Of a DNA stretch of 24,304 nucleotides, positions 129 through 23,141 are shown piece by piece. This DNA is from Calditrichaceae bacterium (lineage in GTDB: Bacteria; Calditrichota; Calditrichia; Calditrichales; JBFXGD01): the NCBI GenBank assembly GCA_050178385.1, contig JBFXGD010000039.1, forward strand, positions 1-24,304, read 5' to 3'. A program made the translations under genes and the position numbers. The notes under the pieces are model-generated. The model ran no database searches. It was not told the origin of the DNA and was given only the letters and a program-made list of their open reading frames with translations. Position 1 is the stretch's first letter. Every line of letters begins with the position of its first letter.

Positions 129-887
129 TCAGTTTTTTATCAATAATAATCCGGCTTCCGCGGCGGCGGATTTTACATCATTTTCGATGTGTCTGAAAAA
201 CTCCTTGCTGATAGAATAAACAAATATCTCAAATACAAATTGATTTTCGTTTTCATCAAGCAACTGTATTTGCGGTTCTTTTGTTAACAATGTCCATGGT
301 GAATTTAATATGATCTGCCGAAGGTATTCAACATTTTCTTTCAGGCCGTATGTCCTGGTTGTTTCGATTTCGAAGCGGTGATGATTGGAATGTTCTTCGG
401 GATCGCTGATTGAATGGATCATCCCCGTTATTTTGCTGTATGGGAACTTTATTATTTCACCGCTCTCGATTTCAATCTGCAAAGACAAATATCCGATGCT
501 TTTTAATCGGCCCTCAAATTCGGCGATTTTTATCCATTGTCCCGATTCATATACATCCTGCGCTTTAAAGATGATCCCCGCGACAAAATCACGGACCGCA
601 AACCAGGATATCCATACAAGAGCGATCAGAATGATAAGAATAAGGGCCACAGAATAATATAAACGGTCTTTAAAAATCTGATTGATACTCCATAGAACAA
701 AAAGAAGCCAGACAACCGTTTCCAGAATCGGATAATAACGCTGAAAATATAACCGGTAGATTCTTTTTACAAATACAACTTTTGCAATCCGCTCAAATAG
801 TTTAAGAATAAGAAAGAGAGCAATCGCCAATATCAGAACTTTTATGATGGCGAACTGAGAGAGCGGGAGCTCAAATATCTGTTTCAT
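129..887 (-). CDS. Mechanosensitive ion channel (MscS-family) domain protein, 252 aa
   Basis: Three N-terminal hydrophobic segments, then 'RDFVAGIIF...YESGQWIKIAEFEGRLKSIGYLSLQIEIESGEIIKFPYSKI', which matches the MscS TM3/beta-domain pattern. ATGA overlap with the upstream gene. Confidence 0.8.
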   Translation of the reverse strand: MKQIFELPLSQFAIIKVLILAIALFLILKLFERIAKVVFVKRIYRLYFQRYYPILETVVWLLFVLWSINQIFKDRLYYSVALILIILIALVWISWFAVRDFVAGIIFKAQDVYESGQWIKIAEFEGRLKSIGYLSLQIEIESGEIIKFPYSKITGMIHSISDPEEHSNHHRFEIETTRTYGLKENVEYLRQIILNSPWTLLTKEPQIQLLDENENQFVFEIFVYSISKEFFRHIENDVKSAAAEAGLLLIKN

Positions 888-3800
888 AATATCTCCATTT
901 CTATAAATTTCCGTATTATAAACGGTTGGAGATACTGATTGAGTTCAAGATGATTCGTCTGAATCTCCGTTACTAATCCCGATCGTTTAAAAAGTTCGAT
1001 CTGGGTTCGGACTTTTTCCGGATCCAGGCTGAATATTCTCCCAAGCTTCTCGATGGTCAGCCGTTTATGAATAATAAACTGAATAAGCCATACCAGCCAG
1101 TCCGGTTCGAGTTTGTGCAATTCGTCCGAATCAGGTCGCTCCGGTTCACGAAGTGTGAGTACGTTACCAGCGACGCTTTCGATATGACTGAACCAACCCT
1201 GTAAGGCTGTGCCGATATTACCATCGGAATAAACGAAAAATTTATTGAAATACCGCACAAGTTTGAATTCCGATATATTGTCTTCAAAATGGCCGTTCAG
1301 TTGAAATTTGAATCCTGTTGACCGGTGACGCATAAGAAGCGCCTCTTTGATATCCTCGGTGTCAAAAGGGGTGCATTCGATAATGCTGATAAAATGATTG
1401 TCAATCCGTTTCATTCGGTTGATAAAACGAAAACTATAGGTATTTGTATTCACAATAAACAGGTGCCGGCGGCCAAATCTCTCAATCAGAGTCATGATCT
1501 GATCAACCAAAGCAAATCCATTGTTACTGCGTTCCCACCATAATTCGAGATCATTAAAAATAAATACACTACCCGCGGGCATGGCATCAAAAATTTCTGC
1601 CGGTTCGCCGTTACTTTGTAATATGCTGTTCAGGTGAGCCTTGAATACATCCGGTTCAATGCTGCCTGTTTCCGGCGGAAAGATATGGAACACTTTATCC
1701 TTGTCGAAAAATTTCGTCGCGATAGCGTTGGAAAGGCTCGATTTCCCCGCGTCAGGCGCCCCGGTTATGAGAATGCCTCCGCTGAATCCCTGTTTGTACC
1801 TGCTTACCGCCTTTTCCGCTGTTTTCATTTCAGCGGCGCGGTTGATTCTGAATTCACGTCCGATGAAGTGTTTGCCGATAAATAATTGTTTATAGTAAAA
1901 CGGAAGAGACTTGAGAACAGACGGAGGCGGGGATACCTTTTCAACCATATTTAACACTGTGCTGATTCTTCCGGGGTATGCAAACTCTTTCTCTGTAAAT
2001 TTCCGGGCAAACAGAACCCCTTCGCTTTGACTGTAAAGCAATCTGACCAATGTATCTCTGAATGTTTTCTTTACGGTTTCTCTTACAGCCTGGACCTGAG
2101 ACAGGACTTTTCGGCTTTCCTCCTGCCTGATATACTGACCCAGGTGACCAATCTCACGCGTGACAAGATAAGGGTTCATGGATGAGAAGGTTTTTGTCAA
2201 ATGTGTCCATAATGAAACTTCCATTTTTTGAATTTGTGCGGATATCCTTTCCCTCTCACTGATTATTCTAAGATTACTTTTTTCAATGATCGTATCGATG
2301 GGGTCATGCATATCATCAATTCCGGTCTCCTCTGATGACCGGGATGAAGAAATATTAAAAGAGATCAGCCGGACAACATCCCTGGCAGTGCCGACGGCTT
2401 GTCTGAAAACTCCGGGAAGTGATGAGATCTCCTTTCTGAACGGTGTCAGAAAATCTTTCTCAACCAGGTAGTCCATAAGGCGCTGCAGGTAAATCGAAAT
2501 CACTTCGGTATCATCGAATTGATTGATTTCGATATTCTGAAAAGAACCTTCGGTGATGATATCTACTGTTTCCGGGATCTCATCGATCGCGCTCCTGATA
2601 TCTGAAACCAGTTCTTCAATAATTGATCTGTTATCTATAATTTCTTCAGGATTGAGTGCCCAGGCTGTCAAAACTCTTGTCTCAGGTTTCTTAGTGCTTT
2701 TAATGTTGTTAATATCCGATTCCAGCCCTGAAAGAGCGGCAATAAGCTTGTTCTCCACAGATACCCGGAGTTCAGAAATCTGTTTTGTAACGATGATCCT
2801 GAATCTGTATTGCAAAGCCATCAGGATTAAATCCATTAATGTGAAATTTACAATTAAATCTTTGTTTTTTGCTAAAAATGACGGAGCGGCAAGGATATTT
2901 TCTTTTATTTCCAGATCGGATTTGGATATCTTAAATTTTTTCTTAAGACGCCGGCCGGCATCTATTGGAATTGAATTGGTAATAATATTCTGCATCATCA
3001 CACGATTCTGAAGCAGCAGCTCCATCCTGAAATCGCTAAATTGCTGCTCTGACCGCGTAATTAAATCCTGTAATTGTTTTAATGTTTTTGATTTTTCGTC
3101 ATTAATAAAATTCTCATCCAATTGTCTGTTGTTCGCCATATCTTCAATCGTGTTTAAGGAATCTCTGACCCGGTTGAAAAATTTTTGTAAATCTGATGTC
3201 CGGCGGTAGCTTTCAATACCTGCTTTATCAAGCTGAGAATATAATTTCTTAAGAAAAACGGTTAAGATATGATATTCTACAAGTGATTTCAGGTCTATGT
3301 TAAGAACAATTGGTTTCTTTGTTAAACGGTGCCTGAATCGTTTTCTGAATTTCATCATATGGATTTGAAATGAATCATCTGCGGACGCTTTAAGTTCGAA
3401 TGGCTCAAACGTAACTCCAACTCTGTGGGGGACATTTTCTGTCAGTGTGTCTAATTGTTTGAGAAAAATATCAAGTCCCTGTTCAAGATTCTCTTTTTGT
3501 TCTGTCGGAATTTCTGATTTAAATTCTTCAAGCAGCCGACGTGAATGGAATAAATAATCGCTCTGAACACGCATTAATAATTTTTGAAAACGGAGAGGCT
3601 TATTTTCAGTAAATCCGTTTTCGATGCTGATAAAATATCGTTCGATAGAATTATTAAGTTTTGAAAGAAACCGGATCTCTGAATCCGAAAAATTTTTAAA
3701 ATAGGCGCTGAAATATTCATCGATTTCTTTTTCAAGTTGATCGGAAATGCCCGATATGGTTTTTGAGAGAAGTCCGCTTTCCGGAAGGACGAGTTCGGGT

Positions 3801-6025
3801 AGATTAAATTTTTCTTCGGCAGGGGGTTCATGATCCTGCGCGACGGGGATTGTCCTTTCGATACCGATGAACAGTGGTTTAAAAAATGAAGCCGCCTGGA
3901 TAAGAAGTACCGTTCCGACAGTATCCAGAAGTGAATTCGTTTTCGAAACAAAATCATCGATATTTTTATCACTCAGACCGGGAATTCCTAAGATCGATAA
4001 ATCAGCATCAACGGATTCCACCTTGATAATTTCTTCAAACGGACGTTTTTCAATGGCGTTATTTATGACTTTAACCTTTGCGTCCAAACGCTCTTCTTCT
4101 AAAATCAAATTCATGTTTTTATAGACTTTGTTGATCAGAGCGCTGTCGTCGACGACAATTAAAATGCGGACGCGGGCATCATGCCATTCTTCCGCGGAAA
4201 GCAGAAATTTTGCCATTGTCATGGCAAGCGCGGCGTTATTGCTTCCCCCTCGCCACCAGATATCAATGTTTTCTTTTTTCCCGAAACCGACATCCTTATC
4301 ATAGTCAAGAATAAGCACATTATAATCAAGCTCGCTGAATTCATTTATCAGTTCAGCAAATCTATCCGGATTATTAGAATTCCTTGCCCATCCCATCATG
4401 ATAGAATTGGGGTCGATGCCCGAAAAGCCGTAAATCTTGGAGATGGTTTCTATTCCCTCGTAAATATTCTGACATTCTATACGTCTCCTGAAAACACCGA
4501 AAAATTCTTCATCAGTTTCTTTTATGTCTTGTCCCATTTTTGGAAAGAGGGCTTTAGCTTTAGTATTCTCGACAAGATCAAAATTGGAGAGTATACCACG
4601 TTTATGAACAAGCCATTGACCAAATTCCACCAGTTGCGGACGAGCACCGGTACCGCCGCTGAATAAAATAATATTCGGGCGCCAGTTTCTCGCGTGACGG
4701 TCAGACCGGTTTAGTTTTTGAAGTCCGGTTCGAACCATGGATGACCAGACTCCCTCCCATGTATCACCGGATTCAAGAGTCAGTTCACGCCTTTTTAATG
4801 TAATAAAAATCAACCCCAGGAGGAGCGAGGCGACGACAAGAGCGATTACATCCAGCTCTATCATGACCAGGAACGCGGCAGCGGAACCGATTATGCTTAT
4901 CCAGGTGGGCACTTTAAAAGATGGCCTGAAGTCAGAGCTTGCCCAGTTTTCAATCGCGCAGCTTAAATTTAAAAAGCCATATGTCGTGATGAAGAACATT
5001 GAGACAATTCTCGCTATTAAATTCAGCTCACCCAAAAGGATACCCGCCTCGGCGAGAATAAATGTAAATAAGAGCGCGTTTCGAGGCTCATTATCCTTGC
5101 CATATCCCTTCTCAAAGAACTTTGGCGTGATTCGGTCAACCGATGTGGCCTGAAGAATACGGGGCGCGCCAAGGATGCTTCCGAGTGCTGACGAAATTGT
5201 CGCTCCCCAGATGCCCGCGAGCACGAGCGGGGAAAATATTGATATTTCAAGAAGAATATTTGGATTATTCACAAGCGATTCCGCATCTACCCGGTATGCT
5301 AGAAAAATAGTCAAAATAATATAAACGACCAATCCTGTTACTACAGCTGTGATCGTTCCGCCCGGGATAGATTTTTTGGGATCTTTCAAATCACCCGACA
5401 TTGAGACACCAGCTTCAAACCCCGTTACGGCAGGGAAGAAGATTCCAAAAAGTACCATCAGAGGGGCGCTGTTTTCTAAAGAATTGAGTACGGGAAGAGC
5501 CGGCGCGGAAGAATTGCCGCCTAAAAATATTGATGCCAGTGAAAGCAGCATCAAGGTCATGATAATATACTGTGTTTTAATCGCCAGTGAGGTGCTTATA
5601 AATGTAATAACTGTGATGCTGACGAGCGCGATGGTCCCGGCCAGTCTTATTGTGTTTTTTGTAACTTCTATACCTATAAATCCGAGAAAACTCTCTGAGA
5701 AACCAATGATGTATAAACTAACGCTCAGGGAAAGCCCGACAAACAGGGCGATTCCAAGCGTTCCTCCGATCGGGAGACCCAGGCTTCGCGACAGGAGATA
5801 GTAATTTCCTCCGCCCTTTACCTTTTTATCGGTGGCGATAGAGGAAATACTTAACCCGGTTGTTACCGAGATAAGGTGAGCAATCAGAATAATCCCAAGA
5901 GTTGTGTATAGACCTGCCTGCCCGAGTATCCAGGGGAGACGGAGGTACATGATCACCCCGAGAATAGTCAGGATAGAAGGCGTAAAAACACCTCCAAAAG
6001 CTCCGAATTTTTTTGCAGTTGCCAT
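884..6025 (-). CDS. SLC12/cation-chloride cotransporter-like APC permease fused to a helical region, P-loop NTPase and putative C-terminal winged helix, 1713 aa
   Basis: CCC motifs GVFTPSILTILGVIMYLRLPW, GGGNYYLLSRSLG, FFPAVTG..AG..MSGDLKDP..SIP.GT, NWRPNI and IDIWW (aa 587). Walker A GAPDAGKS at aa 1422-1429 (nt 1762-1739). Walker-B-like VFIFND. SD GGAG upstream. Confidence 0.85.
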   Translation of the reverse strand: MATAKKFGAFGGVFTPSILTILGVIMYLRLPWILGQAGLYTTLGIILIAHLISVTTGLSISSIATDKKVKGGGNYYLLSRSLGLPIGGTLGIALFVGLSLSVSLYIIGFSESFLGFIGIEVTKNTIRLAGTIALVSITVITFISTSLAIKTQYIIMTLMLLSLASIFLGGNSSAPALPVLNSLENSAPLMVLFGIFFPAVTGFEAGVSMSGDLKDPKKSIPGGTITAVVTGLVVYIILTIFLAYRVDAESLVNNPNILLEISIFSPLVLAGIWGATISSALGSILGAPRILQATSVDRITPKFFEKGYGKDNEPRNALLFTFILAEAGILLGELNLIARIVSMFFITTYGFLNLSCAIENWASSDFRPSFKVPTWISIIGSAAAFLVMIELDVIALVVASLLLGLIFITLKRRELTLESGDTWEGVWSSMVRTGLQKLNRSDRHARNWRPNIILFSGGTGARPQLVEFGQWLVHKRGILSNFDLVENTKAKALFPKMGQDIKETDEEFFGVFRRRIECQNIYEGIETISKIYGFSGIDPNSIMMGWARNSNNPDRFAELINEFSELDYNVLILDYDKDVGFGKKENIDIWWRGGSNNAALAMTMAKFLLSAEEWHDARVRILIVVDDSALINKVYKNMNLILEEERLDAKVKVINNAIEKRPFEEIIKVESVDADLSILGIPGLSDKNIDDFVSKTNSLLDTVGTVLLIQAASFFKPLFIGIERTIPVAQDHEPPAEEKFNLPELVLPESGLLSKTISGISDQLEKEIDEYFSAYFKNFSDSEIRFLSKLNNSIERYFISIENGFTENKPLRFQKLLMRVQSDYLFHSRRLLEEFKSEIPTEQKENLEQGLDIFLKQLDTLTENVPHRVGVTFEPFELKASADDSFQIHMMKFRKRFRHRLTKKPIVLNIDLKSLVEYHILTVFLKKLYSQLDKAGIESYRRTSDLQKFFNRVRDSLNTIEDMANNRQLDENFINDEKSKTLKQLQDLITRSEQQFSDFRMELLLQNRVMMQNIITNSIPIDAGRRLKKKFKISKSDLEIKENILAAPSFLAKNKDLIVNFTLMDLILMALQYRFRIIVTKQISELRVSVENKLIAALSGLESDINNIKSTKKPETRVLTAWALNPEEIIDNRSIIEELVSDIRSAIDEIPETVDIITEGSFQNIEINQFDDTEVISIYLQRLMDYLVEKDFLTPFRKEISSLPGVFRQAVGTARDVVRLISFNISSSRSSEETGIDDMHDPIDTIIEKSNLRIISERERISAQIQKMEVSLWTHLTKTFSSMNPYLVTREIGHLGQYIRQEESRKVLSQVQAVRETVKKTFRDTLVRLLYSQSEGVLFARKFTEKEFAYPGRISTVLNMVEKVSPPPSVLKSLPFYYKQLFIGKHFIGREFRINRAAEMKTAEKAVSRYKQGFSGGILITGAPDAGKSSLSNAIATKFFDKDKVFHIFPPETGSIEPDVFKAHLNSILQSNGEPAEIFDAMPAGSVFIFNDLELWWERSNNGFALVDQIMTLIERFGRRHLFIVNTNTYSFRFINRMKRIDNHFISIIECTPFDTEDIKEALLMRHRSTGFKFQLNGHFEDNISEFKLVRYFNKFFVYSDGNIGTALQGWFSHIESVAGNVLTLREPERPDSDELHKLEPDWLVWLIQFIIHKRLTIEKLGRIFSLDPEKVRTQIELFKRSGLVTEIQTNHLELNQYLQPFIIRKFIEMEIL

Positions 6026-6147: not shown

Positions 6148-6432
6148 CCAACCGGTAAAAATATCAGGATGTCGTTTCATATTAACTTTTGCAGGCAATC
6201 CTATTCTTGTTTTACGGTGATGCTTACGATCTTGTTTTTAAACTAATTTTTAGCCTGTAATATTTACTATTTATCAAATGACGGGATTCAGTATTCAATT
6301 TAAGTATATTTTTGAGAAAACTTCAGAATTTTTTATAAAAATATTATGGTTGAATAAAAAGTATTTTAAAGGCAAGGTGTTGGTCTGTGACCCGGCTGAT
6401 TATATAAAATCGGCTATCGCCGAATCCATTAC

Positions 6433-7611
6433 TCAAAGCAGAAAAAATGTCATTATAAAAGTCATAAATGCCAGTCCCGCTCCGCTGAAGTATGCCGCAT
6501 CGATTCCCCATAGGCTGAAAAATATACCTATGATTAAAGGTCCTGTTGTCTGGCCGAGACGGAGGACCATCCCGTTAATAGACATAAATGCCGCGCGGTG
6601 TTCGATCGGGGCAAGACCGGCGAGCATCGTCTGAATGCTGGGCAGGTTTAAACCTTGGGCGATTCCAAATATAATAGTGGGTATTATTAACAGATAAATA
6701 TTGGATATATAAGGGATGGAAAGGAGTGCCACAGTGTATAGGATGAAGGCCCCTTTGATAAGTTGTTTTTCAGAATATTTTTTTGAGAGTTTTCCGAGTT
6801 GAGAAGATGTGATGGCTGTGCTGACTGACATTATGGACATAATAATTCCGATTACAAGAGAGGATGCTTTAAATTTGAAAGAGATTAAAAGCGGATAAAA
6901 AGTCAGATATGATCCATAAATCAGAATAAAAGTGATAACACTAAGGATAAACAGGATCAGAACCTGTTTCTTTTTTACACTCTTAAAAATACTGGATAAA
7001 TAATTATTAAATGATTGGGAAAGTTTTGGTTCGGGATTATTCAAGCCGAATATCACAAGCAGTCCGACCGGGATCGCCATGACAGGAAGAAGAAATGGGT
7101 AATTCCAGCCAAACAGGGCAAGCGCCCCTCCAATCGCCGGATAGGATGCCGTACCGATGCTAAGAACGCTGGCGTTATAACCCATCGCCGCCGACCGTTC
7201 CTTGCCGGTAAATAAATCACCGATAAGAGTGACATTAAGAGCGCCCAGAGACGCGGCTCCCATTCCCTGAATTGTTCTCATTAAAAGGAGCAGATTAAAA
7301 TCGTTGATAAAAGCGCAGCTAAATCCCGATATCCCGAACAAAAAGAGTGAAGGAATAATTATTCTTTTTCGCCCCAACCGGTCCGCCAAAATACCGAATA
7401 CCGGGGCAAGTATAATTCCGGGGAACGTAAAAACGGTTATTAACAATCCGATCTGGTGGGAAGAGATTTTAAAATGGTCGATCATCCTGGGAAAAGCAGG
7501 TGTGATACTGGCCACACCCATTACGGCGATAAGAGTAATGGAATAAATGACCTGAAGATTTTTATTAAAAAAAAGATGACGCTGTTGTGCCTGATGGTTA
7601 TTTTCGCTCAT
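6433..7611 (-). CDS. MFS transporter (DHA1-like drug/metabolite:H+ antiporter), 392 aa
   Basis: About 12 hydrophobic segments, MFS motif A 'GILADRLGRKR', 'RTIQGMG' and 'G...YPAIGG'. Confidence 0.9.
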   Translation of the reverse strand: MSENNHQAQQRHLFFNKNLQVIYSITLIAVMGVASITPAFPRMIDHFKISSHQIGLLITVFTFPGIILAPVFGILADRLGRKRIIIPSLFLFGISGFSCAFINDFNLLLLMRTIQGMGAASLGALNVTLIGDLFTGKERSAAMGYNASVLSIGTASYPAIGGALALFGWNYPFLLPVMAIPVGLLVIFGLNNPEPKLSQSFNNYLSSIFKSVKKKQVLILFILSVITFILIYGSYLTFYPLLISFKFKASSLVIGIIMSIMSVSTAITSSQLGKLSKKYSEKQLIKGAFILYTVALLSIPYISNIYLLIIPTIIFGIAQGLNLPSIQTMLAGLAPIEHRAAFMSINGMVLRLGQTTGPLIIGIFFSLWGIDAAYFSGAGLAFMTFIMTFFLL

Positions 7612-8167: not shown

Positions 8168-9532
8168 ATGGTACGGATGAATCGAACGATTAGGACAGTG
8201 ATTGCGGGAGCTGCAATTTTTATTGCTTCTACCGGTGCGCTGAGCGCGTCTGACACCCCGGTTGGCATGAATCTGTCGACAGCACTTAATCTGGCGCTGG
8301 AGCAGAATCCTTATTATAGCTCTGCGAAAGGGGTGAGCAGGGCCGCGCATGCAGATGTATGGGACGCGAGAAGTGGTTTTTTACCAAAACTGCGGGCGAA
8401 TGCGGGATACACCCATTACGAAAAACCGGGTACGGTTACACCGATTCATGAGGCCGGCATATTTCCGGAACTGGATGATGAAATATATAAAGCATCGGTT
8501 GAATTATCCATGTCCATATTTAGCGGGGGCAGGACATTAGCCGAAACAAAAGCCGCTAAAGCCGGTGCCCGGGAGAAGGATATCAATGAAGAATCGGTTA
8601 GACTGAATATCATACACAGTGTCGCGAGTGTCTATATCAACGCTCAGGAAATTACTGATAAAGAAGCTCTGGTTGGTGCTCACCTGGAGATTCTAAGACA
8701 GAGATACAATGAATTTAAGCTGCTTTTTGACGAGGGCAGAATTTCTTATGCCGATATAGCTCTATTACAAGCTTCGCTTGAATCTGTTCAGGCTGATAGC
8801 CTTGACATAGAGTCGAAAGGATATGAACTGAATGTTAATCTTGGACAGCTGGTCGGCGGACATGATCCGGTTCAGCCGCTTATTATGGATATGAAGGGTC
8901 ATACATCGGAAAATGACGCGCTGTCAGTATTATTGCCGGATACCAGCTTAATATATTCTGATTATGCCGGTCCTGAAGTGCGCCGCGCGCATGCTCAGTT
9001 GGGTAAATCTGAGGCTATGCTTTCACTTACCAAGAGAAGTTTCCTTCCTGAAATAGGCGGATTTGCGGCTTATAACTACTACTCGCCGTCGGAAATTGAT
9101 ATTTCGGATGAATGGGTAGCGGGTATCACGCTTAGCGTACCACTGTTTGAAGGCGGCAGCAGAATTGCAAAAGTAAAATCGGCAAAAGCGTATACGGTTT
9201 CAGCAAAAGAAAATTTAAAAGCCGCTCAACAAACCCAGACAGCTTTGTTGAAAATTGCCTATGACCGATGGAAAAGCGCAAAAGTTAGAAGGCAATATCT
9301 ATCAAAAGCGGTTGAGCATAAGCTGACATCCGTGACTGCTCAAAGAAAAATTTATGAAAACGGCAGAATCTCTCTCAGCGAGCTGCTGACACAGGAAACA
9401 GAATTATTGGATTTACAAATGCAGGAAAAAGAATTGATATATGCGGAATTGATGGCCATCCTGGATTATCATTCTACCGCTGGAACATTAAATGTGGAAA
9501 ATGTAAAAATGCTATTAGGGAGTGAGTCATGA
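8168..9532 (+). CDS. TolC-family outer membrane efflux protein, 454 aa
   Basis: Signal peptide ending ALSA; 'LSTALNLALEQNP', 'RSGFLPKL', 'RSFLPEI', 'LSVPLFEGG' and 'YENGRISLSELL', typical of the two outer-membrane-efflux repeats. First gene of the tripartite pump. Confidence 0.9.
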   Translation: MVRMNRTIRTVIAGAAIFIASTGALSASDTPVGMNLSTALNLALEQNPYYSSAKGVSRAAHADVWDARSGFLPKLRANAGYTHYEKPGTVTPIHEAGIFPELDDEIYKASVELSMSIFSGGRTLAETKAAKAGAREKDINEESVRLNIIHSVASVYINAQEITDKEALVGAHLEILRQRYNEFKLLFDEGRISYADIALLQASLESVQADSLDIESKGYELNVNLGQLVGGHDPVQPLIMDMKGHTSENDALSVLLPDTSLIYSDYAGPEVRRAHAQLGKSEAMLSLTKRSFLPEIGGFAAYNYYSPSEIDISDEWVAGITLSVPLFEGGSRIAKVKSAKAYTVSAKENLKAAQQTQTALLKIAYDRWKSAKVRRQYLSKAVEHKLTSVTAQRKIYENGRISLSELLTQETELLDLQMQEKELIYAELMAILDYHSTAGTLNVENVKMLLGSES

Positions 9533-10587
9533 AAATCTTGATGAACTGGCGAATCAAATTAATGATGACAATATTATTTGTTATATCTATTATATTTAGC
9601 GGCTGCAAAAAGGAAAATTCTGAAATCACTCACCCACCCGTGGCGGTGAGAGTGATAAAGCCGATGCATAAAAATATGAATAAAGTGCTTTCTTATATGG
9701 GTACGGTTCATTCGGAGAGTGAAGTCAAGGTGACTGCTCAGGTTCAGGGTACCATTGCTTCTCTTAGGTATCCCGAAGGTGCGCGAATTCAAAAAGGTGA
9801 TATGATCGCAAAGATTTATGCTCCCGATCTGGATGCTGCGGTCGAGCGGACAAAAGCCGATTCTGATTACTGGACCAGAAGATATGAGACGGATAAAAGG
9901 CTGGTGGAGGCAAAAGCAATTCCTCCGGAAGAAGGCGAAGCGAGTAAGAGAGCTTACCTTGCAGCCAATGCGGCTTATACCGAAGCAAAATCACGTCTGG
10001 AAAAAACAATTGAAAAATCTCCGATTAACGGCGAAGTCTTAGACTGGCTCGTTGAACCGGGACAGAATGTAATGCCGGGTCAGCCCATATTACTCCTGGG
10101 TAACAATAAACTGGAACTGCATGCCGAGGTGGTTGAAGAAGACCTTCGCAGGGGAATAAGAGGAGGAATTTCAGCCCTGGTAACAGAAAACGACGGTACA
10201 AAATTTGAAACAAAAGTTTCAGAAGTTTCACCGGTAGCCAGTGGCACATCACGGGCATTCATTGTAAAAACTCCACTGCGCTCAGGTGATGGTCAAAATT
10301 TACGCAAAGGGGCTTCACTCAGGGTGGATTACATTCTTGATTCCAGTAAAGATGCAATAGTCGTTCCGGTGCAGGCAATCGCGAATCGTGATAAAAATCC
10401 TCATCTGTTTGTTATTAGTGACGGGCTGGCGTTTCGCCGGGATGTGAAACTTGGAATCGAGCAGGACGGGTGGATAGCCGTTTCTATGGACGGGACGGGA
10501 ATTGAAACAGTAGCAATGTCAAATCTGGGCTCATTAAAAGATAGCGTAAGGGTGTTTGCGGTTGAATTAGAGGAGGTGCAAAGATGA
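9529..10587 (+). CDS. RND efflux periplasmic adaptor (membrane fusion protein), lipoprotein, 352 aa
   Basis: Lipobox IFSG-C; biotinyl-lipoyl halves 'VQGTIASLRYPEGARIQKGDMIA' and 'SPINGEV...VEPGQNVMPGQPI'; 'VVPVQAI'. ATGA overlaps with both neighbours. Confidence 0.92.
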   Translation: MKILMNWRIKLMMTILFVISIIFSGCKKENSEITHPPVAVRVIKPMHKNMNKVLSYMGTVHSESEVKVTAQVQGTIASLRYPEGARIQKGDMIAKIYAPDLDAAVERTKADSDYWTRRYETDKRLVEAKAIPPEEGEASKRAYLAANAAYTEAKSRLEKTIEKSPINGEVLDWLVEPGQNVMPGQPILLLGNNKLELHAEVVEEDLRRGIRGGISALVTENDGTKFETKVSEVSPVASGTSRAFIVKTPLRSGDGQNLRKGASLRVDYILDSSKDAIVVPVQAIANRDKNPHLFVISDGLAFRRDVKLGIEQDGWIAVSMDGTGIETVAMSNLGSLKDSVRVFAVELEEVQR

Positions 10588-13500
10588 GCCTTCCAGGATT
10601 TTCATTAACAAATAAATATACGATATACGCGCTTTCCATTGGTGTACTGATATTTGGTACGGTTGCGTATTACACTCTGCCAATACAGTTGTTTCCGGAT
10701 ACTTCACCGCCGCTGGTCAATGTTCTGACACCTTATGCAGGTGCCGCGGCGGAGGATGTGGCGGATCTTGTATCTGATCCGATTGAAACAGAAGCCGCGA
10801 CACTGGAGGGGGTATACAAGGTAACCTCTACTTCGCAGGATGGATTGTCACTCGTGGAAGTGGAATTTACCTACGACACGGATGTCGATATCGCGGCCGT
10901 TGACGTTCAGAATGCCATTACCAGAATCAGAGGAAAACTGCCGAAGGAGATTGATGAACCCCAGATTATGAAAATTTCAACCAGTGATGCTCCGGTTCTG
11001 AGTATGGGTTTGATAAGTGAAAATCTGGTTGATGTTCGCAGGCTGTCTGAAGACGTTCTGGCACCGGAGCTTCAGCGTGTGCGCGGGGTTTCCATTGTGG
11101 ATGTGTTTGGTGGTTACCAGCCTGAAATATCCATCAGAGTCAACAGAGACCGTCTCGAGGCCCACAGGCTGAATCTTGGCATGGTGGTCAACGCCATACG
11201 AAGTCATAATGTAAGTGTGCCGGCGGGTGAAATCAAAAGCGAGGGATTGCAGTACACATTTCGTGTTGATGAACAAAGCCGGAATATGACCGATATCGAA
11301 AAAATTCCGATTACGACGCCAACCGGTAAACGAATATTAATCGGTGATGTTGCAAAGGTGGAGCAGGGATCAGGAGAAGATCTGTCCCTGTTTCGGGTGA
11401 ATGGAAAAGAAGCCATTGCCATGCAAGTTTTTAAACAGGATGATGCAAATACTGTCGATGTTGTCCTGCGCGCTCAAAATAAATTTTCAGAATTACAGGA
11501 ACGGTACCCGGATATTGAAATGATTGTTGCCAAAGAAGATGCCTCTTTTACCCAGATGATTGTGGATAATATGCTCGGTGGTGTGTGGCAGGCCATCTTC
11601 CTTGCTGCTCTGATAATCTTTCTTTTTCTTGGAAGTTTAAGCAGAGGCCTTGTGGTCGCTGTATCGATGCCGATGACCTTTTTGCTTACTTTTGCCGGTA
11701 TGAAGGTGTTTAATGTGCAATTAGATCTGGTAACGCTTTCGGCGATCATTCTGGCGGTTGGTATGGTTGTGGATGCTTCCGTAGTTGTGCTGGAAAACAT
11801 CACACGGCATTACCGGGAAAGGAAAATATCAGCGACACAGGCGGCTATCGAAGGAGCACAGGAAATCCAGTTTGCTGTTGTTGCCGGAAATTTAACGACA
11901 TTGATCGTTCTTTTTCCGATGCTCTTCTTGTATGGATTCATCGGGAAGACGTTTGGACCATTAGCGGAAACGATGATAATTGCTTTTATTTCTTCTTTAC
12001 TTGTGGCACTTTCATTGGTGCCCATTCTTACGGCATTGGTGACCAGAGACGGCGGGAAAACGGAAAAAATTTCAGAAAAGATTGCCGCGCCATGGAATCG
12101 AGTGATGGATAAAGTCAGGGATGGTTATACTACATTACTTTCAAAATCTCTGAATAAACGATGGTTGGTATTTTTGACTGTAACCATCATGTTCGTCGGT
12201 TCACTTTTGTTATTAAAATATATTGGTATGGAGTTACTCCCTAAAATGGATGCGGGTACCACCAATATTACCATCGAAACGACATCGGGTACCTCTCTTA
12301 CGGAAACCGGAAAAATAATGGAGCAGGTGGAAGCGATCATTTTACAGGAACCCGAAGTGTTGCTGATATCAAATCAAATGGGTTTTGAACCGGGGATGCA
12401 TTCGTTCGGCGGCGGAGGTGTGCAGGGACCGACACAGGGATATATCACGCTGACCTTAACACCCCGTACCCAACGGGATGAATCGATTTGGGAAATCCAG
12501 GATCGTCTGAGAGAGAAAATATGGAGGATTCCGGGTCTGCAGAATGTCGTAGTGAGAGAATCCGGAGCGACAGCCAAATCCACAACGGCTGCATCCATTA
12601 TGGTCAGTGTTAAAGGGGAAGATCCTCTGGTTCTTAATGCGTTGGGTGATGAGGTCATGAAGATCATCACTCCAATACCCGGGGTAGTAAATCCATACCG
12701 GGAATGGCGCATCGATCAGAAAAGCATCGAACTTTCGATCGATACAGAACGCGCCCGGGAGATGGGGATGACTCCCGCCAGCGCGGCCGATGAACTGGTT
12801 CGTTCTCTCGATGGAATGTATGCCGGTACCTTCCGGGATCTGCTGGGAGATGATACACCAATTCGGGTCAGATACGACATGCCATTTCGTCAGCGTGAGA
12901 GAGATGCTTACGAAGTCCGTACGATTTCATCCACGGATGGACAGGTCGTACCAATTGGCAGTATCGTAAATGGCAAAGAAATTATGGTACAGGGGTTAGT
13001 AACAACCGAAAACCTAGAGCCAACACTCGATATTCTCGCGCTGCACCAGGATCGCGCTCTGAATTTTGTGACTGCTGATGTGGCCAAAGCGATTTCCAAA
13101 ATTGATGTCCCAAAAGGCTATAAAGTAGGTCTGGCCGGAGAAGATAAGGATTTAGGAGAAGCTCAAAGTGAGCTTATGGGAGCAATGCTGATGGCACTCA
13201 TAGCAATTTATCTGCTTCTTGTTGCTCAGTTCCGCTCATTTATTCATCCGGTGACGGTTATGATGTCGGTTCCGCTAAGTCTGATCGGTGTAGCCATTGC
13301 TCTCTGGATCGGCGGGAAGACAGTCTCAATGATTGTAATGGTGGCTTTGATTCTCCTTGTGGGTATCGTTGTGAATAATTCGATCATTCTTCTCGACTTC
13401 ATAAGGCAGCGCCGTAATGAGGGAGCCGAGAGAAGGGAGGCGATTGTTGAATCCGTAGCGGCCCGTTTCCGCCCGATTATGATGACATCGTTTTCAACGA

Positions 13501-13700
13501 TTATTGGTATGACGCCGCTGGCTCTGGAACTGGCGCTTGGAGCGGAAAAGTTCTCTCCTCTGGCGATCGCGGTAATCGGCGGGATGACGGCATCTACATT
13601 CCTTACAATGATTGTGATACCTGTGGTGTATGATTCATTTGAAAGCGCCGCTGAATTCCTGAAAGGACTAAGGGCTAAAAGTAGTGTAATTACTAATTGA
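10584..13700 (+). CDS. RND efflux permease subunit (AcrB/CzcA superfamily), 1038 aa
   Basis: Size and topology; 'LPIQLFPDTSPPLVNV', 'GMVVDASVVVLENI', 'GIVVNNSIILLDF', 'RFRPIMMTS' and 'PLAIAVIGGM'. Confidence 0.95.
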   Translation: MSLPGFSLTNKYTIYALSIGVLIFGTVAYYTLPIQLFPDTSPPLVNVLTPYAGAAAEDVADLVSDPIETEAATLEGVYKVTSTSQDGLSLVEVEFTYDTDVDIAAVDVQNAITRIRGKLPKEIDEPQIMKISTSDAPVLSMGLISENLVDVRRLSEDVLAPELQRVRGVSIVDVFGGYQPEISIRVNRDRLEAHRLNLGMVVNAIRSHNVSVPAGEIKSEGLQYTFRVDEQSRNMTDIEKIPITTPTGKRILIGDVAKVEQGSGEDLSLFRVNGKEAIAMQVFKQDDANTVDVVLRAQNKFSELQERYPDIEMIVAKEDASFTQMIVDNMLGGVWQAIFLAALIIFLFLGSLSRGLVVAVSMPMTFLLTFAGMKVFNVQLDLVTLSAIILAVGMVVDASVVVLENITRHYRERKISATQAAIEGAQEIQFAVVAGNLTTLIVLFPMLFLYGFIGKTFGPLAETMIIAFISSLLVALSLVPILTALVTRDGGKTEKISEKIAAPWNRVMDKVRDGYTTLLSKSLNKRWLVFLTVTIMFVGSLLLLKYIGMELLPKMDAGTTNITIETTSGTSLTETGKIMEQVEAIILQEPEVLLISNQMGFEPGMHSFGGGGVQGPTQGYITLTLTPRTQRDESIWEIQDRLREKIWRIPGLQNVVVRESGATAKSTTAASIMVSVKGEDPLVLNALGDEVMKIITPIPGVVNPYREWRIDQKSIELSIDTERAREMGMTPASAADELVRSLDGMYAGTFRDLLGDDTPIRVRYDMPFRQRERDAYEVRTISSTDGQVVPIGSIVNGKEIMVQGLVTTENLEPTLDILALHQDRALNFVTADVAKAISKIDVPKGYKVGLAGEDKDLGEAQSELMGAMLMALIAIYLLLVAQFRSFIHPVTVMMSVPLSLIGVAIALWIGGKTVSMIVMVALILLVGIVVNNSIILLDFIRQRRNEGAERREAIVESVAARFRPIMMTSFSTIIGMTPLALELALGAEKFSPLAIAVIGGMTASTFLTMIVIPVVYDSFESAAEFLKGLRAKSSVITN

Positions 13701-13848: not shown

Positions 13849-14439
13849 ATGGCTAGAATTAACACGGAAGAAAGACAACGGCAAATTATTGATGAAGCGA
13901 TAAAAATTATCCACGTGAAAGGATATTCAGCATTATCGATAAGAGAACTCGCCAAAAATGTAGGGATTTCAGAGCCGGCTATATACCGTCATTTTACCAA
14001 TAAAAATGAGATCATATACGGTATTCTCGACCGCTTGATGGAATTCGGACAAGAGTTGGAAAAAAGACTCAAGACAATTTCTTCACCAAAGGAAAAAATA
14101 GAACAAATAACTATTTTACATATGGAATTTTTACAGGAACATCCTGAAATGACCGCGGTAATATTTTCGGAAGACATATTTGATCCCGACGAATCTATCC
14201 AGAACAAAATCAATGAAATTATGAGAAATCGCCTCAAACTAATAGGCGGGCTGATAGAAGAAGCAAAAGTCGAGGGAACCATTGTTGATGTAAATACCGA
14301 TGACCTCAGCACTGTTATTTTGGGATATCTTAGAATGGTAATTCTTGAGTGGCGTAATTCCGGTTTTAAGTTTTCAATTAAGGAGCGGGGCGAAGGTTTG
14401 CTCGAAACGCTTGACAAAATTGTGTTCAGGGAAAATTAA
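13849..14439 (+). CDS. TetR/AcrR family regulator #1, 196 aa
   Basis: HTH 'RQRQIIDEAIKII..KGYSALSIRELAKNVGISEPAIYRHFTNKNEI'; SD GAGG. Confidence 0.93.
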   Translation: MARINTEERQRQIIDEAIKIIHVKGYSALSIRELAKNVGISEPAIYRHFTNKNEIIYGILDRLMEFGQELEKRLKTISSPKEKIEQITILHMEFLQEHPEMTAVIFSEDIFDPDESIQNKINEIMRNRLKLIGGLIEEAKVEGTIVDVNTDDLSTVILGYLRMVILEWRNSGFKFSIKERGEGLLETLDKIVFREN

Positions 14440-15415: not shown

Positions 15416-15434
15416 ATTGTATTGTAAGGTATAT

Positions 15435-16226
15435 ATGGATATTGCGACAAAATTAGAGATGTTGATTCTTAAGAGTAAATTAAAAAATATTTATAGTGAA
15501 GTAAAAAACTGGGTAGTCTTTATATATAAAACGCTTTCTTCCCTCCATTATGCATTCAAATATCCCGGGGAGACATCAAAGCAGTTTTATATTATGGGAG
15601 TGCAGGCGATTATTATCGTTTTGCTGGCTACCAGTTTCACAAGCATGGTCCTTGCGCTTGAATGGGCAAAAAAATTGGAACCATTTGGAGCAAAATTGAT
15701 GCTTGGGCGTATAGTAGCAGTATCGGTCATCAGGGAAATTGGCCCAATGCTGACCGGTCTGATGGTCGCGGGAAGAAGTGGGGCTAAGGTAGTGTCTGAA
15801 ATTGGCAATATGGCCTTGACAGAACAAATTGATGCGCTTCACGCGTTCGGGGTGGATCCTATCAAAAGACTGGTGGTACCAAGGGTCTTCGCGTCGATTA
15901 TGATCATGATTCCACTGACACTGCTGGCCGATGCAATGGGAATCATCGCCAGTTGGTTCGCGTCGGTTGTCTGGATGGGTGTGGATTCCCAGTTTTTCTG
16001 GATATCGATGCGTGACGGACTGTTTATAAAAGATTTGGTTATAGGTTGGGTTAAGCCGCCGTTTTATGGGGTTTTGATTGGAATAATAAGTTCCTATTAT
16101 GGTTATACTGTCCAGGGGGGCGCGGAAGGAATGGGAAGGGCTGCCACAAAAACAGTAATGTACTCATCGCTTGCTGTTCTTTTTATGGACTTCCTTTTGA
16201 CAAAAATTATCCTGAGCCTCTACTAG
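15435..16226 (+). CDS. mlaE: MlaE-family lipid ABC transporter permease
   Basis: 'VIREIGPMLTGLMVAGRSGAKVVSEIGNMALTEQIDAL..FGVDPI..LVVPR' and 'GGAEGMGRAAT.TV'. ATG at 15435 follows AAGG. Confidence 0.92.
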   Translation: MDIATKLEMLILKSKLKNIYSEVKNWVVFIYKTLSSLHYAFKYPGETSKQFYIMGVQAIIIVLLATSFTSMVLALEWAKKLEPFGAKLMLGRIVAVSVIREIGPMLTGLMVAGRSGAKVVSEIGNMALTEQIDALHAFGVDPIKRLVVPRVFASIMIMIPLTLLADAMGIIASWFASVVWMGVDSQFFWISMRDGLFIKDLVIGWVKPPFYGVLIGIISSYYGYTVQGGAEGMGRAATKTVMYSSLAVLFMDFLLTKIILSLY

Positions 16227-16238
16227 GAGAAATAAAAA

Positions 16239-16988
16239 ATGATCGAATTTAAAGATGTCGAGCTGAACCTGAACGGCAAGGAAATTTTGAATAAAATTTC
16301 ATTTAAGATCGAAAAAGGACAGAGTGTCCTGCTGATCGGCAACAGCGGCGCCGGTAAAAGCACTATTTTGAAACTTTTACTCGGGCTGATTAAACCGGTA
16401 TCAGGCGAAATCTCGGTCTTTGGTAAAAATATCGCTGAATTGTCAAACAATGAATTGATGAGATTGCGTCAAAAATGCGGAATGGTCTTTCAGGGAGGCG
16501 CATTGTTTGATTCTCTGACCGTGGAAGAAAATGTGGGATTCTTTCTTCGTGAAAGCCAAAAACTGTCAAGAGAAGAAGTATATCATGGAGTGATGGAAAA
16601 GCTTGAATATCTGCACCTCGACGCATTTAAAGACTATTATCCCGCGCAGCTTAGCGGCGGTATGAAGAAGCGGGTAGCGATCGCGCGGGCGATCACATCA
16701 GGACCCAATGTCATGTTGTATGATGAACCCACAGCAGGACTCGATCCGCAAACAGCCACGAGGGTCGTCGATCTTATTGACGATTTAAGGCACCGTTTTA
16801 ATGTGACATCACTTATTGTAAGCCATGAAATCCACTATTTTATGAAAATTGTGGACAGGATGATGCTGCTAAGGGATGGTATCATTGAATATGACGGGGA
16901 GCCGGATTTGGAATCCGTATCCGATAAAAAAAAAACTGAATTCCCATTCGCTTTAACTGAGGTAATGTCACAGTATGGAATTATCTAA
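16239..16988 (+). CDS. mlaF: MlaF/Mkl-family ABC ATPase, 249 aa
   Basis: Walker A GNSGAGKS, Q-loop VFQGGALFDSL, signature LSGGMKKRV, Walker B MLYDEP, H-loop SH; SD AGGAG. Confidence 0.93.
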   Translation: MIEFKDVELNLNGKEILNKISFKIEKGQSVLLIGNSGAGKSTILKLLLGLIKPVSGEISVFGKNIAELSNNELMRLRQKCGMVFQGGALFDSLTVEENVGFFLRESQKLSREEVYHGVMEKLEYLHLDAFKDYYPAQLSGGMKKRVAIARAITSGPNVMLYDEPTAGLDPQTATRVVDLIDDLRHRFNVTSLIVSHEIHYFMKIVDRMMLLRDGIIEYDGEPDLESVSDKKKTEFPFALTEVMSQYGII

Positions 16989-17937
16989 TAAAAATAAAAG
17001 TCTTAAAGTAAGTGTATTTCTGATGATAGGACTCTCTCTGTTTTTAGCCGGATTCATATTTTTTATGGTCGGATCAAATCAGAAGATATTCGATTCAAAA
17101 TACTCGATATATATGTTTCTCCCCAATATAGAGGGATTAAATTCCGGCGCGTTTGTCACATTATCCGGGTTGAAGGTTGGCGTAGTCGGTCAGCTGAAAT
17201 TTACAGAATATAATGACCAGCGGGGAATTAGAATCGAACTGAAAATAGATAATGATTACCAGGATAAAATCACCGCGTCTTCAAAGGCCATTATCAAAAC
17301 AATGGGGATTCTTGGAGACAAATATGTTGACATTTCACTCGGGAAGGCAGATGAATTGGCGCTTGAGCAGAGTTCTTTTATCCAAAGTGAATGGCTGATT
17401 GATACAAGTAATCTTATTGCTGATGCCACATCCACTCTTTCTGATCTAAAAGCTATTTTGCACAATCTTAATAAAATCAGCAGTGACATAGTAGATGGGG
17501 AAGGGGTGCTTAGCCGTATTATAAAAGACAAAGATGCGGGAAGCGATATGGCGGTATTGTTAAAAAACGTCAGTAAGGGGAGTGATAAACTTGTTGCCGG
17601 AAAGGGGAATCTTGGTAAACTCCTTAACGACAGTACACTCTATAAATCTGTTACGCGGACATCACAGGATGTGGAGGCGATAGTCGGAAATATCCGCGCC
17701 GGCAAAGGAACGGTCGGGCAGGTGGTTTCTGATACTATGTTCTTTTCTCAAATTCAATCGGTTGTTCAGAAAAGCGATTCACTGCTGAATAAATTGCATG
17801 GTGAAGGAACCGCAGGCAGATTATTGTCTGACAAAGAACTTTATGAACGTCTTCTAAATCTGACCCGTGAACTTGAAGAATTGACGGTTGATTTTAAAGA
17901 AAATCCCGAAAAATACGTCTCTTTTAGTGTTTTCTGA
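16975..17937 (+). CDS. mlaD: MlaD/MCE-domain protein with long helical repeat tail, 320 aa
   Basis: N-terminal TM; MCE motif 'GLNSGAFVTLSGLKVGVV...I.TMGILGDKYVDISLG'; C-terminal 'NPEKYV'. 14-bp overlap with mlaF. Confidence 0.9.
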   Translation: MELSNKNKSLKVSVFLMIGLSLFLAGFIFFMVGSNQKIFDSKYSIYMFLPNIEGLNSGAFVTLSGLKVGVVGQLKFTEYNDQRGIRIELKIDNDYQDKITASSKAIIKTMGILGDKYVDISLGKADELALEQSSFIQSEWLIDTSNLIADATSTLSDLKAILHNLNKISSDIVDGEGVLSRIIKDKDAGSDMAVLLKNVSKGSDKLVAGKGNLGKLLNDSTLYKSVTRTSQDVEAIVGNIRAGKGTVGQVVSDTMFFSQIQSVVQKSDSLLNKLHGEGTAGRLLSDKELYERLLNLTRELEELTVDFKENPEKYVSFSVF

Positions 17938-22349: not shown

Positions 22350-23141
22350 ATGAAGAACAAGAGTGCATTAGGCGCGGTATTGGCCGTCGTTGGTTTTTTT
22401 GCAGGAATGCTGCTTTTCTATTATCTGGCTGACACGTATATGACAGTCATCAATGGAAAAATAGCTGGTGGCCGTCCTGATGAGGCAATCGCTGTTATGA
22501 TTACCCAATCTATGCTTGGCTGGCTTGGTATCTCAGCCAGCGCTTTGTGGGTTGTGGTCATGTATGGTTATCTGAAAAAACTGGAATGGGCAGGATTCTG
22601 GGCGATCGTAGCTGCTTCATTGCAGATGCTGGCCGGTTTTTTCCCGACAATTCCCGCCAAAAGTATTAACCTGCCTGCACCGACAATGACAGTGTTTATT
22701 ATAGCTACTGTTGTGTGGTTTGGGATTATGTTTATCGAGAAAGTTGATAAAAAAGTAATAGCGTTGTTATTTGTCGCTGGATTAGCCTATGTGCTGACCT
22801 ATATGTGCGGTGTGGCGCTTATTTCCAAATATCAGACGACCACCTATAATGATCTCTGGAAAGGTATGTATGCGGTAGATATGATGGTGACATGGTTTGG
22901 CGCGACCGCGTGGTTGGTATTTTCTCTCGCAGTACTCAAAAGAAAATCATGGTCGCTGTATCTCGGAATCTTTGCATCGATGATGTCATTAATTGGGGCG
23001 CTTCCACTGGCTATTGTTAATATTATGGAAGTACATCGTTTCTCTATGTTTTTGCCGGCTCCGATAATTGCTGGTTGTTTGCTCATCGTGCTTCTTATGC
23101 CGAATACAAATAAGCTTCTTACAGAATGGAAAAATTCATAA
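22350..23141 (+). CDS. Hypothetical integral membrane protein (about 8 TM, internally duplicated), 263 aa
   Basis: Strong SD GGAGGAG; about 8 hydrophobic segments; no family recognised. Confidence 0.85.
   Translation: MKNKSALGAVLAVVGFFAGMLLFYYLADTYMTVINGKIAGGRPDEAIAVMITQSMLGWLGISASALWVVVMYGYLKKLEWAGFWAIVAASLQMLAGFFPTIPAKSINLPAPTMTVFIIATVVWFGIMFIEKVDKKVIALLFVAGLAYVLTYMCGVALISKYQTTTYNDLWKGMYAVDMMVTWFGATAWLVFSLAVLKRKSWSLYLGIFASMMSLIGALPLAIVNIMEVHRFSMFLPAPIIAGCLLIVLLMPNTNKLLTEWKNS

Follow-up and report, generated by a model that had tools for sequence, protein, structure and literature searches.

A CCC-type cotransporter fused to a helical/AAA+ module and co-encoded with an MscS-family protein: a candidate bacterial system for ion and volume homeostasis

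How cells sense their volume and adjust their SLC12/CCC cotransporters is a long-standing question, and in animals the adjustment runs through soluble kinases. A two-gene locus of a Calditrichaceae bacterium (assembly GCA_050178385.1, contig JBFXGD010000039.1; the 24,304 nucleotides that were analysed are called the window here) raises the related question of what a CCC-type transporter does with a built-in NTPase and an MscS-type neighbour. The giant gene of this locus (P0001; window 884-6025, minus strand; identified from the list of open reading frames and its translation, from Pfam and NCBIfam matches, and from homologues) encodes a protein of 1713 amino acids (aa), in which a complete SLC12/CCC cotransporter (aa 1 to about 720) is followed first by a pair of long helical bundles, then by an ORC/Cdc6/STAND-like AAA+ domain, and at the C-terminal end by a winged helix. 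The small gene behind it (P0002; window 129-887, minus strand; identified from its open reading frame, Pfam, and hydropathy) encodes a membrane protein of the MscS family with 252 aa. We lean slightly towards the view that both gene products belong to a single membrane complex that serves ion and cell-volume homeostasis, and that salt uptake would be regulated in it by an AAA+ switch, the MscS-type protein, or both. The observations behind this view are the identities of the domains, their conservation, the linkage of the genes in three architectures, and a model of the complex that passes its controls.

The two genes are not only neighbours but overlap. On the minus strand, which reads gatattATGAaac at this place, the ATG of the partner gene (887-885) and the TGA of the giant gene (886-884) are joined in an ATGA (884-887), which gives an overlap of 4 nt. 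A sequence-only reading of this DNA, made by a model before any database search, had already described this overlap and had taken the first ~715 aa of the giant protein for a complete CCC-type transporter with its cytosolic domain, based on the motifs NWRP and IDIWW. Both statements agree with our results. The membrane part, a LeuT-fold permease domain as in other CCC/SLC12 proteins (aa 1 to ~415; 4781-6025, minus strand; Pfam, hydropathy, and alignment to KCC1), matches the Pfam family AA_permease (PF00324) at aa 13-411 with an E-value of 1.4e-46 and 159.6 bits against a cutoff of 24.6. The cytosolic C-terminal domain (aa ~416-720; 3866-4780, minus strand; Pfam, alignment to KCC1, and conserved columns) matches the Pfam SLC12 cytosolic domain (PF03522) at aa 583-667, marginally, with 29.2 bits against a cutoff of 27. 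With aa 1-720 as query the membrane and cytosolic domains both align to human KCC1 (E 5e-77), up to aa 655 and including IDIWW, and NKCC1 and NCC align at about 1e-75 to 1e-65; over all KCC1, NKCC1, and NCC chains the E-values range from 5e-77 to 1e-58. The motifs RNWRPN (aa 446-451) and IDIWW (aa 586-590) are kept in the 43 full-length homologues, in which W448, P450, N451, and W590 form conserved columns. The NCBIfam model of the K-Cl cotransporters, TIGR00930, scores 386.5 bits, which is far above noise and below its subfamily cutoff of 953.4. Judged by these profile scores the CCC part is a CCC homologue outside the TIGR00930 K-Cl cotransporter subfamily. The hydrophobic segments of the giant protein are confined to aa 7-413, and therefore the remaining 1300 residues are predicted to be cytoplasmic. 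The source genome also encodes an ordinary CCC paralogue of 745 aa (contig C10, locus L002), with 41% identity to the giant protein across aa 3-454 of the latter.

Is such a fusion a peculiarity of a single assembly? A word-indexed search with the extension, the part of the giant protein behind the transporter, returned 48 clusters, 43 of which are 1666-1737 aa long. An exhaustive search returned 1729 representatives (at 50% identity) with E<=0.001 and 457 with E<=1e-30, and among the 150 relatives listed from this search most have about 1700 aa. A relative is encoded in 392 GTDB species genomes. The record titles of the relatives name metagenome-assembled genomes of Calditrichota, Ignavibacteria, Bacteroidota, Marinimicrobia, Latescibacterota, Desulfobacterota, and Myxococcota, and length and architecture are conserved across phyla at 25-40% identity. 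Within the Calditrichota, the phylum from which the window comes, the full-length type is present in 18 of 86 genomes. Because the fusion is found across many genomes of several phyla, it is neither unique to this assembly nor an assembly artefact. The guess that similar fusions might be stored in the databases as 'amino acid permease' was also right, the names used there being 'amino acid permease', 'cation:proton antiporter', or 'hypothetical protein'.

The MscS gene, whose co-occurrence with the fusion had been suspected from this one locus, accompanies it in most other species as well. In 16 of 17 other Calditrichota loci an MscS-like gene is located directly downstream, overlapping the giant gene by 1-16 nt in 14 cases, abutting it in one, and separated from it by 122 nt in another. 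Among these loci, L010 is cut by the end of its contig, and L021 is without an MscS-like partner. The partner in L015 is split into two consecutive open reading frames (L015:4422-5168), and the same is seen in L081 (8113-8877), in both cases by a frameshift or an assembly error. To cover other phyla, a profile of the partner was compared with the downstream open reading frames on the same strand of 80 loci. An MscS-like reading frame is present in 76 of these, and is immediately adjacent to the giant gene in 74. In the two Bacteroidales loci L083 and L106 the partner is found about 2.2 kb further downstream. In L106 it is separated from the giant gene by an ordinary prokaryotic CCC of about 764 aa, which matches PF21555/PF21554, and L083 probably has the same arrangement. 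Four loci gave no match: L062 breaks off 102 nt behind the giant gene, and L076, L105, and L111 truly have no partner next door. When the flanking reading frames of the 80 loci were clustered, no other neighbour came near the frequency of the partner. The next commonest neighbours are a Na+/H+ exchanger (25 loci), an ordinary CCC with PF21555/PF21554 (10), and a second MscS (8).

Which part of the giant protein does the MscS gene belong to? Proteins of about 1000 aa that match the NTPase part are encoded in many Calditrichota genomes including the source genome (contig C114). One of these stand-alone proteins, P0196, has no transmembrane segment, matches AAA_16 and AAA_22 below threshold, and its gene is followed by a canonical MscS gene of 335 aa (MS_channel_2nd, E 7e-21). 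In a profile-profile comparison with hhalign, 847 columns of the stand-alone family align to almost the whole extension including the helical bundles (prob 100, E 7.9e-53). An MscS-family gene is directly downstream in 13/13 stand-alone loci of the Calditrichota and in 2/2 stand-alone loci found in other phyla, namely in a Cyclobacteriaceae and in a Polyangia genome. The same Polyangia genome contains a third architecture, in which a Na+/H+-exchanger (CPA) domain is fused to the module, again with an MscS gene behind it. This family of CPA-antiporter fusions comprises at least 172 clusters of proteins with about 1500 aa, mostly from Myxococcota; it is present in full length in 4 of 61 sampled genomes, and an MscS-like reading frame follows the gene in all four. 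Because the stand-alone and the CPA-fused module also precede an MscS gene, the conserved pairing is that of the helical/AAA+ module with MscS. Several cation transporters are joined to this module, the CCC in the window among them. The module is older than the fusion. The pairing of transporter and MscS proposed by the sequence-only reading thus stands with respect to the linkage of the two genes, but has to be corrected with respect to the part concerned, the conserved partner of the MscS gene being the helical/AAA+ module and not the CCC part.

Some further arrangements of the module were encountered. Contig C114 of the source genome (L115:272-6592, minus strand) contains a stand-alone gene (861 aa, open at the contig end) followed by three MscS-family reading frames (3041-4006, 2093-2971, and 272-1237). 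P0249 (2083 aa) combines CPA, AAA_16, and an MscS beta-domain in one chain, and P0233 (2038 aa) combines TrkH, CPA, and the module. Each is represented by a single cluster and could be a read-through or a gene-call artefact. A single-chain fusion of NTPase and MscS in L122 was rejected, as it is a spurious long frame in a high-GC genome, which really contains a CPA-NTPase gene with a separate MscS gene behind it.

Which ions would the carrier transport? Y105, P198, T201, and Y349 of the giant protein align to KCC1 Y216, P429, T432, and Y589, and KCC1 N131 corresponds to Thr20. Transmembrane helix (TM) 8, AGIWGATISSALGSILGAPR ('ATISSALGS'), aligns to 'ATLSSALAS' of NKCC1, so that A275, S278, and S279 correspond to NKCC1 A610, S613, and S614. 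With a query of 46 aa around TM8 all 18 matches at E<=0.01 are NKCC1 or NCC chains, and none is a KCC. Throughout the family, each of Y105, P198, T201, Y349, and A275/S278/S279 is either invariant or conserved to 90% or more. From the structures of CCC transporters we take Y105, P198, and T201 (the Tyr of TM3 and the Pro and Thr of TM6) to form the K+ site, Y349 (the Tyr of TM10) to bind Cl-, and A275/S278/S279 (TM8) to bind Na+. Because the positions of all three sites are kept, the carrier looks NKCC-like, that is, like a Na+/K+/Cl- transporter, if these residue roles apply here.

What could the NTPase contribute? The AAA+ core and lid (aa ~1353-1620; 1166-1969, minus strand; Foldseek and motif counts) and the C-terminal winged-helix domain (aa ~1633-1713; 887-1129, minus strand; secondary structure of the model and weak profile matches to winged helix-turn-helix (wHTH) proteins) were modelled with pLDDT values mostly between 85 and 96. 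The best Foldseek match of the AAA+ part is archaeal ORC2 (1w5t_A, E 5.4e-7, prob 1.00, TMt 0.44), closely followed by 2qby_A (E 7.8e-7, prob 1.00), the TMt of the two being 0.44-0.48. Other matches are Cdc6/Orc1, RuvB, TnsC, the archaeal ATPases 2qen and 2fna, and Apaf-1. At the sequence level all Pfam P-loop matches at aa 1418-1538 are below threshold (AAA 16.7 against 21.2 bits, AAA_16 14.2 against 32.6, and nSTAND3 14.2 against 27.2), and so are the sequence-profile matches of the extension in the PDB, all of them sub-significant (the wHTH regulators 1uly_A with E 0.0087 and 2d1h_A with E 0.011, and a RuvB-like protein with E 0.027). The family shows a 'GRE.E' before the Walker A, a 'DDL..W'-like Walker B, and a 'GN(P)G', which we take to be hallmarks of AAA_16/STAND proteins.

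The Walker A GAPDAGKS (aa 1422-1429; 1739-1762, minus strand; conserved columns and motif counts), which had been picked out from the sequence, has not been lost in the homologues. The pattern GxxxxGK[ST] is present in 42 of the 43 full-length homologues, with G1422 and G1427 unchanged throughout. Among the 123 sequences of a wider set, 109 keep the Lys (K1428), which is replaced by R in 11, by T in 2, and by N in 1. The Walker-B-like VFIFND (aa 1487-1492, at the position of the hhhhD[DE] pattern) is the beginning of the family motif VFIFNDLELWWERS (aa 1487-1500; 1526-1567, minus strand; motif counts). Its description has to be qualified: the strand is there and is conserved in the 43 full-length homologues, but its first acidic position (1491) is degenerate in the wider set, being H in 37, D in 37, N in 23, and E in 19 of the 123 sequences. 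D1492 is kept in 106, E1494 in 107, W1496 in 119, W1497 in 120, and R1566 in all of these 123 sequences. According to these counts the P-loop of the AAA+ domain is largely intact and its Walker B is degenerate. Because of the degenerate Walker B and the ORC/STAND-like fold, a nucleotide-binding switch is likelier than a motor. A P-loop fused to a transporter could also mean that the NTPase energises the CCC domain and turns it into a primary pump. This we find scarcely credible, given not only the switch-type fold and the degenerate Walker B but also the ~650 residues and the disordered linker that lie between the AAA+ domain and the transporter, and the existence of the same module without any transporter. 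In addition, LeuT-fold carriers are gradient-driven.

The charged helical region that the sequence-only reading had noticed between transporter and Walker A is present and was modelled confidently as two long helical bundles, each with a small beta hairpin. Bundle 1 comprises aa ~754-1034 (2924-3766, minus strand; AlphaFold2 model, VIA-align rows at model residues 14-294), and bundle 2 aa ~1054-1283 (2177-2866, minus strand; AlphaFold2 model, VIA-align rows 314-543). Bundle 2 contains a conserved LPE motif, whose P1151 is nearly invariant. A low-confidence linker follows (aa ~1294-1350; 1976-2146, minus strand; pLDDT<50 at residues 574-630 of the extension model). The AlphaFold2 model of aa 721-1713, made from an alignment of 55 rows, has a pLDDT of 84.4 and a pTM of 0.54, and the model of the helical part alone (aa 741-1295) has a pLDDT of 90.8 and a pTM of 0.84. 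Foldseek found nothing in the PDB for the helical part at E<=0.001. In a wide VIA-align search the best Z is 11.8, to a designed helical bundle, and four-helix-bundle sensor domains match at Z ~10. The similarity in fold is generic, because even the best Z is below the bar of about 13 that applies to helical proteins in VIA-align.

Talin and vinculin, which are scaffolds, match the helical bundles at Z 8-9. This generic resemblance would suit a module that only serves as a chaperone or membrane scaffold, by which MscS-type channels and cation transporters are assembled, clustered, or placed, and that passes no signal to the transporter, and so would the soluble stand-alone form, which is paired with canonical MscS genes and has no transporter, and the degenerate Walker B, which fits binding rather than a working enzyme. 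Nevertheless we regard a pure scaffold or assembly factor as unlikely. Assembly alone can hardly explain why the module was joined covalently, and more than once, to transporters of two unrelated families, each time C-terminally at their cytosolic side, and the invariance of R1566 together with the largely intact P-loop points to a function that depends on nucleotide.

How much of an MscS protein is the partner? The Pfam domain MS_channel_2nd (PF00924) is found at aa 98-154 with 34.7 bits against a cutoff of 20.2, with three hydrophobic segments N-terminal to it, so that the layout is three hydrophobic helices followed by a beta and an alpha-beta domain. Matches to MscS structures in the PDB have E-values of 0.0032-0.8, the best being 9seh_A over aa 15-170. 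The cutoff of 500 bits of the NCBIfam MscS equivalog NF047601 is not reached by the partner with its 14.3 bits. In the alignment of the partner family (54 sequences of ~230-270 aa) a 'WF..RD..AG' hinge, the beta-domain, and an 'LN.PW.S' motif are kept.

The earlier suggestion that the two proteins could form a complex gained support from modelling. Residues 300-993 of the extension and the partner, each with its own alignment, were modelled together in three runs and with controls. The complex obtained an ipSAE score of 0.62 (0.61, 0.65, and 0.62 in the runs) against 0.00 for the best control; this score expresses the confidence of the model and is not a measurement. In calibration, 116 of 157 solved complexes came up to this mark, as did 2 of 215 mismatched pairs. 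Between the runs the contacts agree to 81% or more, and the pLDDT of the partner is at least 71. In the model the partner makes contact through its alpha-beta domain, with aa 191-204 (including L194, N195, P197, and W198) and 226-245. The giant protein contributes aa 1499-1501, just after WWE, as well as aa 1530-1538, the winged helix at aa 1641-1666, and aa 1711-1713 (the latter two are residues 921-946 and 991-993 in extension numbering). The predicted pose is topologically possible because both contact surfaces are cytoplasmic.

The winged helix would have another use if the protein were a membrane-tethered regulator, whose AAA+ domain and winged helix bind DNA and couple the ion or transport status to transcription or replication. 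The best folds, ORC2 and Cdc6/Orc1, and the weak wHTH profile match to 1uly_A (E 0.0087) are in line with DNA binding. However, the complex model uses a helix of the winged helix (921-932 in extension numbering) to contact the MscS-like protein, the sole conserved neighbour is a membrane protein, and the immediate surroundings of the genes showed neither a conserved regulatory target nor a repeated DNA site. DNA-binding regulation is therefore, in our opinion, very unlikely.

The STAND/AAA_16-like motifs could also belong to a stress-suicide or anti-phage module, whose NTPase senses an invader and opens an ion flux, upon which the cell collapses. PADLOC gives a weak match of mad8 to the P-loop of the giant protein (E 2.2e-5, 22.1 bits), and another P-loop NTPase, a transmembrane protein, is reported to act in defence through the export of ions (PMC13001434). 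On the other hand, PADLOC found no match for the partner, for the stand-alone protein P0196, or for the MscS partner of the latter. The neighbours across the loci are ion transporters and not defence genes, genes of ordinary transporters surround the pair in the window, and at 25-40% identity relatives from different phyla still share length and architecture. A role in defence is thus highly improbable.

A complex for ion and volume homeostasis, the reading that we prefer, would work as follows. The giant protein would be an NKCC-like secondary cotransporter for Na+, K+, and Cl-, whose cytosolic domain runs into a full copy of an otherwise free-standing regulator. The co-translated MscS-type protein would sit in the same membrane and would be docked with its cytoplasmic alpha-beta domain on the AAA+/winged-helix end, as in the model, if the two bind each other in the cell. 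Input would come from membrane tension at the MscS-like subunit, from the nucleotide state of the AAA+ domain acting as switch and not as motor, or from both. The helical bundles would relay it to the cytosolic domain of the CCC, where salt uptake would be turned up or down. Salt transport could in this way be gated by nucleotide or by tension, as had been suggested before.

Several points weigh against this reading. The Walker B is degenerate (with H or N at residue 1491 in 60 of the 123 sequences) and 14 of the 123 have another residue in place of the Walker A Lys, and because of this nucleotide hydrolysis and, in some lineages, also nucleotide binding may have been lost. The pore helix of the partner (P0002 aa 78-98, YSVALILIILIALVWISWFAV) is bulky and hydrophobic, contains no Gly, and is not Gly/Ala-rich, whereas the pore helix TM3a of MscS has a Gly/Ala packing motif; the corresponding helix in the MscS partner of the stand-alone module is AVTASAGIAIGFAS. 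The small partner may therefore be non-conducting. On average, conservation at the modelled interface does not exceed that of the remainder of the two domains (permutation p 0.83 and 0.41). In addition, the complex was modelled 1:1, whereas MscS channels are heptamers and CCCs are dimers. Finally, an adjoining partner is absent from L021 and, among the 80 cross-phylum loci, from L076, L105, and L111, where its absence could be assessed.

Taking the three architectures together, a wider class can be proposed. It is a serious though tentative possibility that the twin helical bundle, the AAA+ switch, and the winged helix form a widespread and so far unrecognised class of regulators, which would bind MscS-type tension sensors and would be fused to unrelated cation transporters (CCC, CPA, and possibly TrkH-CPA), resulting in a volume circuit from mechanosensor to transporter.

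The surroundings of the two genes in the window contain mainly genes of other transport systems. An MFS transporter gene is located upstream on the same strand (6433-7611, minus strand). Between it and the giant gene (6343-6423, minus strand) there are a terminator-like hairpin 3' of the MFS gene (6423-6410) and then two promoter-like sites 5' of the giant gene. These are weak consensus matches, whose counts in the promoter/terminator scan are barely above those of shuffled sequences, and they are only a hint that the giant gene and its partner form their own transcription unit. Further away, an operon on the plus strand (8168-13700) encodes an outer-membrane factor, a membrane-fusion protein, and an AcrB-type RND pump, and is followed by a TetR-family regulator (13849-14439, plus strand). 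The genes of a lipid-transport-like ABC system, MlaE permease, ABC ATPase, and MlaD, are found at 15417-17937 (plus strand), with an outer-membrane beta-barrel gene before and another TetR regulator after them. The open reading frames at 22350-23141 (263 aa) and 23339-23962 (207 aa), both on the plus strand, have no Pfam match at E<=0.001.

How does the locus compare with what is known? A full-text literature search, with subscription journals outside its coverage, found no paper on a fusion of CCC or CPA with AAA+ or on a gene pair of AAA+ and MscS, in line with the sequence-only reading, which knew of no characterisation either. We know of no regulator of prokaryotic CCCs, and the same search, within this coverage, found none. 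If it works as proposed, the protein is a secondary transporter under regulation whose regulator and partner are both unprecedented. Because a candidate sensor of the MscS type, a putative nucleotide switch, and a transporter are wired together here, physically and genetically and in hundreds of species, the question of how cells sense their volume and adjust their CCCs becomes directly testable with two genes.

Like the channels MscS of Escherichia coli and YnaI, the partner has three transmembrane helices, a TM3b-like 'RDxxAG' hinge, a beta-domain, and an alpha-beta domain. Unlike these, it has only about 240 aa, its pore helix is without the Gly/Ala packing motif, and it is always encoded after an AAA+ gene. 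By this result, many proteins of the MscS family may operate together with an AAA+ protein dedicated to them, a partnership that the E. coli paradigm does not include. With ORC/Cdc6, the STAND NTPases (Apaf-1 and the MalT-type AAA_16 proteins), 2qen, and 2fna the giant protein shares the order of core, lid, and winged helix at Foldseek E-values of 5e-7 to 1e-5. It differs from them in having neither DNA-replication parts nor NOD-LRR or TPR sensor parts, in the twin helical bundles that precede the AAA+ domain, in its association with the membrane via the fusion or the partner, and in scoring below the gathering thresholds of all Pfam AAA families.

In the Kef-type K+/H+ systems a CPA2 antiporter carries a fused nucleotide-binding KTN/RCK domain and has an ancillary subunit, KefF or KefG. 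The plan is the same here, with a secondary cation transporter, a fused cytosolic domain of a nucleotide-binding type as putative regulator, and a small co-encoded partner, and a CPA-fused form of the module exists as well. The parts are different, however: the regulator is an AAA+ domain with helical bundles and not a Rossmann-type KTN domain, and the partner is a membrane protein of the MscS family, whereas that of Kef is a soluble oxidoreductase-like subunit.

Finally, the giant protein has the permease with 12 transmembrane helices, the cytosolic domain, and the ion-site positions in common with other SLC12/CCC proteins, such as NKCC1, NCC, KCC1-4, and the ordinary prokaryotic CCCs of ~745-765 aa. 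In contrast to all of these it has an extension of about 1000 aa with helical, AAA+, and winged-helix parts and a dedicated MscS-like partner. It is without the N-terminal region through which animal CCCs are phosphoregulated by the WNK-SPAK kinases. If the proposed regulation is true, module and partner would be a functional prokaryotic counterpart of the WNK-SPAK control of the animal NKCC and KCC transporters.

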